From a virus (taxonomy: Duplodnaviria > Heunggongvirae > Uroviricota > Caudoviricetes), in the IMG/VR virus record IMGVR_UViG_2706794676_000012: a DNA stretch of 39,720 nt, one strand, 5' to 3'. Positions 5,044 through 7,541 of the stretch are shown here, piece by piece; the first letter of the stretch is position 1, and each line of letters opens with the position of its first letter. The notes under the pieces were generated by a model. The model worked only from the letters and a program-made list of their open reading frames with translations, did no database searches and was not told where the DNA came from. The translations under genes and the position numbers were made by a program.

Positions 5044-5616
5044 TCACGGTACTTTTGGTGACGGAGCTGGTGAGGCAGGAAAATAACGATAAAGGGTGGA
5101 AAGGCCAATATCAAATATCAGTGCGATTTGTTTACGGGACTCGCCATTAGCCAGCAAACGGGCGATTTGCTCCCGCTCTTTCTCTGTCAGTTTCTGAGGT
5201 CTGCCGCCATGACGCCCCTGAGCACGGGCAGCAGCAAGACCCGCGCGTGTACGTTCAATAATGAGTTCCCGCTCCATTTCCGCCAGCGCGCCCATTATAT
5301 GGAAAAAGAAACGTCCCATGGGAGTGGATGTATCAATATTGTCCGTAATGCTGCGGAAGTTAACGCCGCGTTGCCGGAGTTCTTCTGTTAAAAGGACAAG
5401 GTGCTGCATACTGCGTCCAAGGCGATCCAGTTTCCAGACCAGCAGGGTATCCCCTGGCCGGAGTCGCTTTAATGCGCGTTTAAGTCCGGGACGCTCCCTT
5501 GTCTTACCGCTTATTCTGTCTTCGAAAAACAGCTCACATCCTGCACATTCCAGCGCATTTCTTTGTAGCGCCGTATTCTGGTCATTTGTTGACACCCTGA
5601 TATACCCAATCAGCAT
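5044..5616 (-). CDS. gin: Serine recombinase DNA invertase (Gin/Hin/Pin/Cin family)
   Basis: 190 aa MLIGYIRVSTNDQNTALQRNAL...GDTLLVWKLDRLGRSMQHL...MGRFFFHIMGALAEMERELIIERT... closely resembles Mu Gin; adjacent to an inverted-repeat-flanked tail-fiber segment. Confidence 0.9.
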   Translation of the reverse strand: MLIGYIRVSTNDQNTALQRNALECAGCELFFEDRISGKTRERPGLKRALKRLRPGDTLLVWKLDRLGRSMQHLVLLTEELRQRGVNFRSITDNIDTSTPMGRFFFHIMGALAEMERELIIERTRAGLAAARAQGRHGGRPQKLTEKEREQIARLLANGESRKQIALIFDIGLSTLYRYFPASPAPSPKVP

Positions 5617-5681
5617 ACGATTTCCTTATTATAAAAAGCCGGAATTGTCGCATGAGGAATAAAACAGAGTTAATCCTGGCT

Positions 5682-5707
5682 TTCCTGAAAACCTCGGTTT
5701 ACGGGAA
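5682..5707. promoter_or_regulatory. gix-like recombination site (gin-proximal)
   Basis: TTCCTGAAAACC-TC-GGTTTACGGGAA: two imperfect 12-bp inverted half-sites around a 2-bp core, very similar to Mu gix (AAAACCTCGGTTTAC core). Confidence 0.7.
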
Positions 5708-6055
5708 ACGGTAAACAGGGCGGCGAATGCTCTGCCATCGGACGGCACCGCCGTTGCCGCGAATAGACTCGCCACCCCAAGAAATATTAATGGGGTTCCC
5801 TTTGACGGGACGCAGGACATAAACATCACTTCTGGTATAACACAGCAGGATGCGGATTCCCGATATATCCAGGATATCAGGCTGGGAGCAGAGAACAGGC
5901 AGGTAATGTACGGTGGGGCATATTACTCTGCGTACGGTAATGTTATGGCAGGCCTGCAGATTGACAGTAAAGTTGATGCTTCAAACGATTTTATAGCATT
6001 CAGACCCCTGCAAAAATTAGTCGGAGGTACATGGATTACGGTATCTCAGTTATAA
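5696..6055 (+). CDS. Alternative tail fiber C-terminal cassette (S'v-like), promoterless and start-less
   Basis: Frame open from 5663 to stop 6053-6055 with no start codon. Begins with [26 protein letters not shown], identical to the repeat-encoded part of the expressed tail fiber, then diverges; expressed only after inversion. Confidence 0.7.
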   Translation, partial: GLRETVNRAANALPSDGTAVAANRLATPRNINGVPFDGTQDINITSGITQQDADSRYIQDIRLGAENRQVMYGGAYYSAYGNVMAGLQIDSKVDASNDFIAFRPLQKLVGGTWITVSQL

Positions 6056-6106
6056 ATAGTCAGTAAATAATATATTTTAAAACAGATTTATTTCCAGGAG
6101 GATTTT

Positions 6107-6628
6107 ATGGAACTAAAAAATATAACCCGTTATTATCCTGAAAATATGCCATATGGTAATAATGTTCAGTATTTCCAGAGTGAAGATGGTAAGGATTTCT
6201 ACGAATCCCTGCCATTATTCACCAAAAAATATAAACTTTGCATAACACCTGACAGCGGCGTTATCTGCTCAATATCACAGGACGCCTCGGCGCTGTATCC
6301 TGCGGGGTTTTCTGTGGTTGAGGTCGATGAACTCCCTGAAGGCACGGATATTTCAGGAAACTGGAAGTTTGATAATGGCATAATCTCCCGTATTCCGGTT
6401 AACTACGCAAGAAAACTGGAAGCAATGCGCCAGTCATATCTTAATCAGGCATATGAAAAAATTAATGACTGGAGAACGGAGCTACAACTGGGCACCATCA
6501 GCGATGAAGACAGAGCAGCACTTACCCAATGGATGGCATACATCAGTCAGGTGAAGAAAATGGAACTACCCGCCATTAAAACAGAAGCTGAATTTAACGC
6601 CATTAAATGGCCTGAGCAGCCACAGTAA
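6107..6628 (+). CDS. Tail fiber assembly protein (U'-like chaperone) for the alternative cassette
   Basis: 173 aa; ATG at 6107 preceded by CAGGAGGA; C-terminal DWRTELQLGTISDEDRAALTQWMAYISQV motif typical of phage tail fiber assembly proteins. Confidence 0.8.
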   Translation: MELKNITRYYPENMPYGNNVQYFQSEDGKDFYESLPLFTKKYKLCITPDSGVICSISQDASALYPAGFSVVEVDELPEGTDISGNWKFDNGIISRIPVNYARKLEAMRQSYLNQAYEKINDWRTELQLGTISDEDRAALTQWMAYISQVKKMELPAIKTEAEFNAIKWPEQPQ

Positions 6629-6631
6629 TAA

Positions 6632-6651
6632 AGAAGGCCGGAAGGCCTTCT
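6632..6651. terminator. Bidirectional hairpin terminator between convergent U' and tail fiber genes
   Basis: AGAAGGCC (6632-6639) GGAA GGCCTTCT (6644-6651), perfect 8-bp stem with tetraloop; TTTATT follows on the minus strand. Confidence 0.55.
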
Positions 6652-6659
6652 GAATATCA

Positions 6660-7541
6660 TTATATACTTGCAGCCGTCACCCATGCTCCATTTAACAGAT
6701 ACTGCAACGGCCGGTAATACACGCCGCCGACGTTATCTGCCGTATTCTTACCGACATCCTGTACTTTAATTCCGGTAAGAACATTGCCGCCCCCCAGATT
6801 CAGATCCCAGCTTTCCCATGTTCCGGGCATATGTGCGGTCACCGACCCCAGTCTTATGGCGGTTACTGTTCCTGATGAGATAGTGATATCCTGCGTCCCG
6901 TCAAAGGGAACACCATTAATTGTGTGGGCATTTGCCAGCCTGTTCGCGGCAACGGCGGTGCCGTCCGATGGCAGGGCATTCGCCGCCCTGTTTACCGTTT
7001 CCCGTAAACCGACGTTATCGATAAAAGCCCCTTTATCCGGAATGTCTGCGCCGTTCTGCTCCCTGCGCAGGTAACGGTTATCACCTTCGCTTTTGCTGTA
7101 AACATCCAGATTATTACGGGCGGTTCCCTTATTCTCCAGGTCGGCGAGATTCTGATCCTTCGCCAGGGCATTAACGTCAGCGGGACCAAGACTGTTTTTT
7201 GTGGCAAGCGTCCCCAGACCAAGATAACCACGGGCCAGACGCTGGGCCTCCGCACCGGCATCAGCAATTTCTTTCAGGTTATTTTTCCGGGAAAAGGCAT
7301 TCGCAGCGATAATGGCTTTAATGGACAGCGTAAGCTGGTTTAACTGCGCCTTATCCGGCTGAATACTGGCTTCAGCCAGAATATTCAGCAGTTCGGCCTG
7401 GAGAATATTCAGCCAGTCCTGACCAATCCAGCTGATACCTTTTTGTCCGTCACCTTCGGTAAACCAGGTGGTGGTATTACTCTGCGCCGGTGCCAGCGCA
7501 GGCATATTCGCCACGCCGGAATTATTATCAACATGAAACAT
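6660..7541 (-). CDS. Tail fiber protein (constant part Sc fused to currently expressed variable part Sv)
   Basis: 293 aa; N-terminal fiber domain; internal ...[39 protein letters not shown]... encoded across the right inverted repeat; start overlaps upstream gene stop. Confidence 0.85.
6999..7024. promoter_or_regulatory. gix-like recombination site (distal)
   Basis: Reverse complement TTATCGATAACG-TC-GGTTTACGGGAA; inner half identical to the gin-proximal site. Confidence 0.65.

Follow-up and report, generated by a model that had tools for sequence, protein, structure and literature searches.

How does a phage assemble a tail-fibre tip whose gene is not followed by a chaperone gene? This question is raised by a 39,720-nucleotide stretch of viral DNA (IMG/VR record IMGVR_UViG_2706794676_000012; "the window" below means this whole stretch). 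The window is essentially one Mu-like transposable prophage of Escherichia coli, of the Sp18 type. Beside its gene for a Gin-family DNA invertase (gin), the prophage carries an invertible segment with two alternative fibre tips, tip A and tip B, and a single tail fibre assembly (tfa) gene. In the window orientation, tip A is joined to the constant part of the fibre gene and tfa is convergent with it. After inversion, tip B is joined instead and tfa follows in the same direction. An earlier note, made without database searches, had pointed to this asymmetry. We compared the locus with its relatives. The one-sided segment is a conserved variant of the Mu G-segment switch and no new kind of system. 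Our tentative answer to the question is that one generalist Tfa chaperone may serve both tips.

The fibre segment is flipped in nature

Every feature listed in the earlier note was found at the position given there. Those of the switch are the following; lengths are in base pairs (bp), nucleotides (nt) or amino acids (aa).

5694–7012: invertible segment of 1,319 bp, from core dinucleotide to core dinucleotide
5044–5616, minus strand: Gin-family serine DNA invertase, 190 aa (Pfam Resolvase, 1.6e-51, and HTH_7, 4.9e-15; PHROG 125 'DNA invertase', 1.9e-94)
5682–5707: gix-like site at the left end, adjoining the invertase gene, TTCCTGAAAACC-TC-GGTTTACGGGAA; inner half-site one base off Mu gix
6999–7024: gix-like site at the right end, inside the fibre gene, TTCCCGTAAACC-GA-CGTTATCGATAA; four mismatches to Mu gix
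5694–5763: left arm of the inverted repeat (partner 6943–7012), 70 nt with one mismatch and a weaker extension up to 5835
5532–5546: candidate Fis site (possible recombinational enhancer) within the 5′ part of the invertase gene, gin nt 71–85

E. coli NCCP 13983 (locus L001) contains the same prophage region with the segment reversed. There, a 296-aa fibre is followed by an identical Tfa. When 5694–7012 of the window was flipped in silico, the result differed from L001 by 7 mismatches in 2,601 bp, and the permissible breakpoints included the gix core. Strain DLI.5a has two copies of the prophage (L155 and L156) at different chromosomal sites, both internally deleted. Flipping the equivalent 1,319 bp converted L155 into L156 with zero mismatch across 7.2 kb from the prophage end. 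Each orientation was seen repeatedly in the family: the close relatives from complete E. coli genomes comprised 20 records oriented as the window and 6 flipped, and annotated related loci comprised roughly 23 window-type and 10 flipped. These natural variants, found by genome comparison, indicate that a Gin-family invertase flips 1,319 bp between two inverted gix sites. They support the Gin-mediated inversion proposed in the earlier note, which had suggested looking for both orientations and had predicted tip B followed by Tfa in the flipped one, as seen in L001. Inversion swaps the last ~95 fibre codons, and the host range should change with it. The variants show that a prophage present in ~4% of complete E. 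coli genomes carries a host-range switch that is active or was so until recently.

The invertase shares 136 of its 190 residues (72%) with Mu Gin and keeps the catalytic YIRVSTNDQ motif. Like Gin, Cin, Pin and Hin, it is a small serine recombinase (~190 aa) that combines a resolvase catalytic domain with a helix-turn-helix at the C-terminus. The two gix-like sites were present as first described and are inverted. The reverse complement of 6999–7024 is TTATCGATAACG-TC-GGTTTACGGGAA, and its inner half-site is the same as that of the left site. The central TC is identical in both, and such a match of central dinucleotides is a requirement for inversion. Elsewhere in the 39.7-kb window, no site lay within eight mismatches of Mu gix. 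The right gix encodes FIDNVGLRE, which aligns with FIQNLGLQE of Mu S, and the crossover falls at the same codon as in Mu S, where the Mu peptide is FIQNLGLQETVNRA. The crossover within the fibre gene joins a constant 5′ part to alternative 3′ parts, as in the Mu G and P1 C segments. The 68-bp near-perfect inverted repeat matched its partner at 67 of 68 positions over 5694–5761, and the 23-residue fibre peptide that the repeats were said to share was confirmed. By a repeat-finding tool, the repeat was 86 nt long at 93%, and a further 50 nt matched at 84%. The candidate Fis site is the lone match in the gene to a weak, degenerate consensus, and Mu gin matches there too; with this consensus, no second Fis site was recognisable 48 bp from it.

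Opposite segment orientations were also seen among two or more prophage copies in single genomes, namely DLI.5a, TOE17 and AST46. Large internal deletions, different in the two, affect the DLI.5a copies, and both carry a recombinase annotated as frameshifted, so that the inversion either occurred before the frameshift or was carried out in trans by a different invertase. Many IMG/VR draft contigs (L019, L021, L026, L030, L035, L040, L041, L061 and L064) stop within or a few bases past the fibre constant part, at the inverted repeat. Such breaks are expected if the repeat, or mixed orientations in a culture, disrupt short-read assemblies.

Two homologous tips share one tfa gene

The fibre and chaperone genes are arranged as follows.

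6660–7541, minus strand: tail fibre gene as assembled, 293 aa, with constant part 7013–7541 and tip A 6660–7012 (PHROG 1833 'tail fiber protein', 6.7e-141)
5696–6055, plus strand: silent alternative fibre 3′ end, tip B; open frame from the repeat to a stop, expressed after inversion
6107–6628, plus strand: Tfa gene, 173 aa, the sole tfa (Caudo_TAP, 4.8e-19; PHROG 136, 4.7e-56; Mu U structure 5YVQ_B, 4e-16)
6632–6651: hairpin in the gap where the tfa and fibre genes converge (8-bp stem, 4-nt loop; z = −3.15 for either strand)

Fibre residues 1–191 matched the N-terminal part of Mu S (5YVQ/8JU3, E about 1e-46), and the final ~70 aa of the tip A fibre matched the distal tip of Mu S/S′, the part that binds TfaMu in 5YVQ. 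Tip B matched the final ~70 aa of Mu S (5YVQ_A, 8e-8), and in L001 it is fused to the constant part. The 293-aa fibre of the window and the 296-aa fibre of L001 have residues 1–176 in common. The two tips are homologous, with 47% identity when the shared repeat is included and 31% over the variable part. As the earlier note had it, the current fibre gene has no co-oriented tfa downstream; tfa is convergent with it in the window, and after inversion the two are co-oriented and 51 nt apart. The hairpin, described as bidirectional, does fold on both strands between the convergent units, but a T-tract follows it on the minus strand only. It is therefore a clear intrinsic terminator only for the fibre transcript of the present orientation.

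Searches for a second tfa were made by tblastn with 13 diverse Tfa proteins, from the Sp18-type family, Mu, SfMu, a P1-like phage, POP15, Av-05, a Citrobacter prophage and IMG/VR locus L045. None was found in the window or in its unmasked identical twin, a prophage of E. coli JE86-ST05; each has one tfa. A chaperone gene hidden in the window's runs of N was rejected, since each run (250–268 bp) lies inside a known gene and the unmasked twin has one tfa. An assembly gene for each tip, as in the Mu G and P1 C segments, was thus present in neither the window nor its twin. Mu itself has two chaperone genes, as first stated, and SfMu and the P1-like phage (MH422554) likewise.

The asymmetry is therefore real, with one chaperone in one orientation, and no chaperone gene for the current tip was found elsewhere in the prophage. 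It is, however, a trait of the Sp18-type family and not particular to this copy. Sp18-type loci were examined in complete E. coli genomes, in a Mu-like element inside a Shiga toxin (Stx) phage and in IMG/VR contigs. Every complete one had two tips and one tfa, in the order constant part, tip, convergent tfa, second tip, gin and a DUF6645 gene. Two points are distinctive: both tips are of one chaperone-dependent class, and the lone chaperone gene persists while the surrounding tips get shuffled. We found no published statement or test concerning the single chaperone gene of the Sp18-type region or the assembly of the second tip.

Tip alleles vary around a single tfa gene

Two alleles (A1 or A2) occupied the tfa-distal position and three (B1, B2 or B3) the tfa-adjacent position. 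The window carries A1/B1, and its Tfa is only ~61% identical to the Tfa of O157-type (Sp18-like) copies, e.g., L007 and L009. Tip identities were 28–42% between A and B and 30–41% between B alleles. The motif (T/S)ADN(I/V)(G/A/N)GVYYR was found in all A-position alleles and was missing from the B alleles. A-position tips were intact in nearly all loci, and A1 and A2 are diverged, recombining alleles. The same Tfa type (N-domain 84–100% identical) adjoins B1, B2 and B3b tips that are only 30–41% identical to each other. The Sp18-type Tfa therefore appears promiscuous from these comparisons, as the B tips beside it differ from each other as much as they differ from tip A.

Two ways of assigning the Tfa to a partner were tried and rejected. 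By similarity, its N-domain is 35–44% identical to Tfas of either tip kind, and the differences are too small; the whole window Tfa is slightly nearer to Mu U′ than to U. By co-variation, tfa and tip alleles assort essentially freely. The sole link was a T2 C-domain always found with tip A2, for which physical adjacency can account.

A generalist Tfa may assemble both fibres

Co-expression of TfaMu is needed to produce the Mu fibre (PMC8174754), and TfaMu stays attached to the tip (PMC7882524). Tip A probably needs a Tfa as well, as judged from its homology to the Mu S/S′ tips, which depend on TfaMu. In POP15 (Certrevirus), the P1-like phage and Av-05, a tfa follows each tip-A-like tip within 0–9 nt. 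The Citrobacter prophage (L067) has tfa immediately downstream of a tip that shares the ADNIGGVYY motif.

In our preferred reading, both tips rely on a single promiscuous Tfa whose expression does not depend on orientation. We put its probability at roughly 45%. One generalist chaperone would be used by tip A and tip B. In the flipped orientation, tfa would be co-transcribed with tip B; in the window orientation, it would be made from a putative start of its own within a conserved, AT-rich spacer. A shared Tfa is at least as likely as the chaperone-free folding of tip A implied by the earlier note, given that homologous tips elsewhere all precede a Tfa.

The spacer upstream of tfa

6056–6106, plus strand: AT-rich spacer (78% A+T), 51 nt, between tip B and tfa

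The spacer measures 79–121 nt in Sp18-type relatives and 69 nt in Citrobacter L067; the gap before tfa is at most 9 nt in Mu, SfMu, the P1-like phage, POP15, Av-05 and L045, a relative with two tfa genes. In relatives with a type-2 spacer, the 50 nt before the tfa start were 94.9% conserved, compared with 94.5% at codon positions 1 and 2 and 83.4% at position 3. The long AT-rich spacer and its conserved 50 nt hint at orientation-independent tfa expression.

Three unrelated sequence types of the spacer occur across the family. Type 2 (examples are L004 3974–4095, L011, L012 and L003) contains a perfect 8-bp palindrome, CTGAAATA-TGCG-TATTTCAG, in L004, L005 and L038, which is one base longer in most others. 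The palindrome overlaps the stop codon with which the preceding tip (or its remnant) ends, and type 2 also has a second small hairpin. In L004 and L011, the remnant of an older tip 3′ end precedes the type-2 spacer. Candidate −10 elements picked by eye in the spacers were inconsistent across spacer types and were dropped.

A derivative locked in the tip A orientation

One lineage has lost most of gin, the left gix and nearly all of tip B through a single shared deletion junction (~window 5115–6010). In these loci (L003, L015–L017, L029, L037, L039, L043, L072 and L073), tip B is reduced to its final ~45 nt; tip A stays joined to the constant part, and the convergent tfa is undamaged. Some have an A1 tip and others an A2 tip. 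CI5, a human isolate, has the locked form inserted within xdhA, and M3, from a mouse, has it in flgL. Its presence at different insertion sites in unrelated strains indicates that phage fixed in this way moved between sites and strains. As read from these genomes, this spread points to a functional tip A fibre.

The ratio of nonsynonymous to synonymous substitution rates (dN/dS) of tfa in the locked lineage was 0.1–0.23. This value was not taken as a sign of purifying selection on tfa since locking, because the non-coding remnant is only ~3% diverged (by eye) and the tfa diversity comes from recombination.

Weighing the explanations

Several observations count against a shared, independently expressed Tfa. 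No sigma-70-type promoter on the tfa strand was found by a crude scan of the three spacer types and upstream to the invertase gene; in sigma-70 consensus scans of the window, L003, L004 and L009, counts were no higher than in shuffled controls. A motif common to the putative late promoters is missing from the spacer. In the present orientation, transcription of tfa would run into the fibre transcript. The spacer might be conserved solely for translation in the flipped orientation. That the locked lineage has kept tfa counts for little, as the lineage is young and there was little time for decay.

In the strongest alternative, tip A would fold and trimerise without a dedicated Tfa and tfa would act for tip B only, as a chaperone and possibly as a bound adhesin. 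The two orientations would then differ in both tip and cap. We consider this rather unlikely, while acknowledging several observations that fit it. Tip A has no co-oriented tfa, and no tfa promoter was detectable in the window orientation. Assemblies show the tip A orientation more often than the other, and the locked form is mobile. The A-position alleles carry their distinct motif, (T/S)ADN(I/V)(G/A/N)GVYYR, which the B-position alleles do not. Tips of another fold, Gp53-like_C, occur without a tfa in P2-like invertible segments, and the fibre of Alteromonas phage A5 works independently of its encoded chaperone (PMC10579305), so that some phage fibres do not depend on their own chaperone. 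Against it stand the homology of tip A to the Tfa-requiring tips of Mu S/S′, the tip-A-like tips checked in other phages, three of three of which directly precede a tfa, and the tip with the ADNIGGVYY motif in Citrobacter L067, which does so too. Since both window tips are of the Mu-S type, chaperone independence cannot be assumed from the fold.

Tip A might instead draw on a Tfa that some other prophage in the host provides in trans, as E. coli strains usually have several tfa genes. Tfa proteins from different phages can replace one another. The Tfa family of the window appears promiscuous, and in the E. coli genomes that match the region, the number of matching places has a median of 2 and reaches 8. 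However, infectivity would then hinge on the other prophages of the lysogen, which is hard to square with how the layout is conserved in many unrelated strains and how the locked form has spread, and the retained convergent tfa with its conserved upstream region would be left unexplained. We regard this explanation as improbable.

It is also very unlikely that the window orientation is a non-productive or poorly productive state whose second chaperone has decayed, with locked and deleted copies being defective prophages: many copies are indeed degraded (frameshifts in JE86-ST05, internal deletions in both DLI.5a copies), tips are occasionally frameshifted (L024 and L058), and the related IMG/VR locus L045 retains two tfa genes, suggesting that one was lost here, but A-position tips are mostly intact, with diverged, recombining alleles as under host-range selection, the window orientation is the majority, the locked form sits at different sites in unrelated strains, and the related Sp18 prophage is reported to be predicted intact and to have its DNA packaged efficiently (PMC2669165).

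The shared generalist Tfa therefore remains our preferred reading. A broader statement that covers it and the self-sufficient tip A is fairly probable, namely that the chaperone has been uncoupled from its tip, either as an orientation-independent tfa for two tips with ~30% identical variable parts or as a Mu-S-type tip that needs no Tfa. If either form of uncoupling is true, the pairing of Tfa and tip would be much looser than the S–U and S′–U′ layout of Mu and P1 suggests. The locus would also offer a compact natural system, with fibres of fewer than 300 aa and ~90 variable tip residues, for defining Tfa recognition. Tfa chaperones restrict tip swapping in phage evolution, in engineered phages and in tailocins, and the cognate chaperone usually travels with the tip. 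Here, a natural family shuffles many tip alleles around one chaperone gene, and a tip that is not co-transcribed with this gene is assembled with its help or with none, suggesting a generalist chaperone or a self-sufficient Mu-type tip, either of which would be useful for retargeting. The locus is thus a modest natural test of chaperone–tip specificity.

The prophage and its neighbouring genes

The prophage has the marks of a Mu-like transposable phage: a transposase, a MuB-like ATPase, a Mor activator, Mu-type head and baseplate genes, com/mom and varied host sites. The annotation of the twin prophage in JE86-ST05 lists a Mu transposase, a MuB-like ATPase, Mor, Mu-type head and tail genes and com/mom. 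Copies of the family disrupt rhsC, ypdB, xdhA and flgL, and one adjoins bglJ; the strains differ. Relatives at 80–100% identity with the same layout were found in 237 of 5,426 complete E. coli genomes (~4%), including O157 and other Shiga-toxin-producing strains. A scan of species-representative genomes gave just two loci, in Citrobacter braakii and Edwardsiella anguillarum. Directly upstream of the fibre gene lies a baseplate gene.

7541–8101, minus strand: Mu gp48-like baseplate wedge gene (Pfam Phage_Mu_Gp48, 7.5e-22)

In Mu, the fibre N-terminus docks onto the gp48 baseplate protein (PMC11915804).

Directly downstream of gin, at 2904–4958 on the minus strand, a gene encodes a 684-aa protein with Pfam SASA (sialate-O-acetylesterase-type, 1.5e-13) and DUF6645 (7.4e-68) domains; it matches PHROG 143 (function unknown). 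The gene is kept between gin and com/mom in all Sp18-type relatives; Mu has nothing there, and in Citrobacter L067 the position is occupied by a collagen-like second fibre and a tfa. Its product could be a virion-borne receptor-modifying esterase, or the gene could be one of lysogenic conversion.

The octamer YCCGCAAA occurs on the minus strand at 5022–5029, 21023–21030 and 29222–29229, upstream of the DUF6645, protease/scaffold and lysozyme genes. It might belong to the late-promoter signal of the phage, but it was set aside, since only 10 sites were found against 5 expected by chance, several of them intragenic and none near tfa.

Six runs of N, 250–268 bp each, lie at 8401–8650, 11227–11494, 12744–12993, 15215–15464, 26947–27206 and 29739–29988. 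They break known phage genes and create artificial long open reading frames (e.g., 10207–14757); none falls within 5044–7541. In the identical twin prophage, RefSeq annotates a 'tRNA-OTHER' (L074 22601–22680, equivalent to window ~21651–21730, plus strand) between the virion-morphogenesis and minor-head genes. ARAGORN found no tRNA gene in the whole window.

Comparison with known invertible fibre segments

Among the closest known systems is the G segment of Mu with its Gin invertase (also in SfMu and D108). The window has a 72% identical invertase, near-identical gix sites and a crossover at the same fibre codon. The gene order is also that of Mu (gp48, constant part of S, invertible segment, gin). 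The fibre is homologous to S/S′ at its N-terminus and in both tips, as Tfa is to U/U′. The differences lie in the content of the segment. The Mu segment is ~3 kb long and holds two complete S-variable/U sets, whereas that of the window, at 1.3 kb, has one tfa beside two short tips of ~90 variable residues. Fibre length is 504 aa in Mu and 293–296 aa here, and the gap before tfa is 2 nt in Mu and 51 nt in the window. Unlike Mu, the window family has the DUF6645/esterase gene and two small genes between gin and com/mom. The window belongs to the same family of transposable prophages as Sp18 of E. coli O157:H7 Sakai and its relatives, and the layout is shared.

The C segment of P1 with its Cin invertase, checked on the P1-like phage MH422554, is similar in that the invertase adjoins convergent fibre-tip and chaperone genes. 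One tip of this phage is 52% identical to tip A. Unlike the window, it has two chaperone genes, each directly after its own tip. We also sampled 80 IMG/VR loci with invertases 74–100% identical to that of the window. Many had two convergent tfa genes and several had one.

P2-like invertible segments of the H fibre, with invertases 75–77% identical to that of the window, are one-sided as well.

L097 3603–5674: P2-like invertible segment
L086 3555–5853: P2-like invertible segment
L122 3163–5806: P2-like invertible segment

In L097 and L086, a collar/gp12-type tip is followed by a Caudo_TAP gene and the alternative Gp53-like_C tip is not. In L122, the alternative tips number three, all Gp53-like_C, beside one weak Tfa-like gene. 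The chaperone-less tips of these segments are of a different fold, whereas both window tips are of the Mu-S type.

The Mu-like prophage of Citrobacter braakii ATCC 51113 (L067) is a further parallel. The constant part of its fibre is 75% identical to that of the window. A convergent tfa lies 60 nt beyond the end of its fused 472-aa fibre, which lacks a tfa of its own; after the silent tip come a 69-nt spacer and then tfa. This prophage differs from the window in its longer fibre, in the C-terminal domain of Tfa and in a second pair of fibre and tfa genes downstream of gin. One-sided invertible fibre segments are therefore not unique to the Sp18 type, as they are found in P2-like segments and in a Citrobacter Mu-like prophage too.

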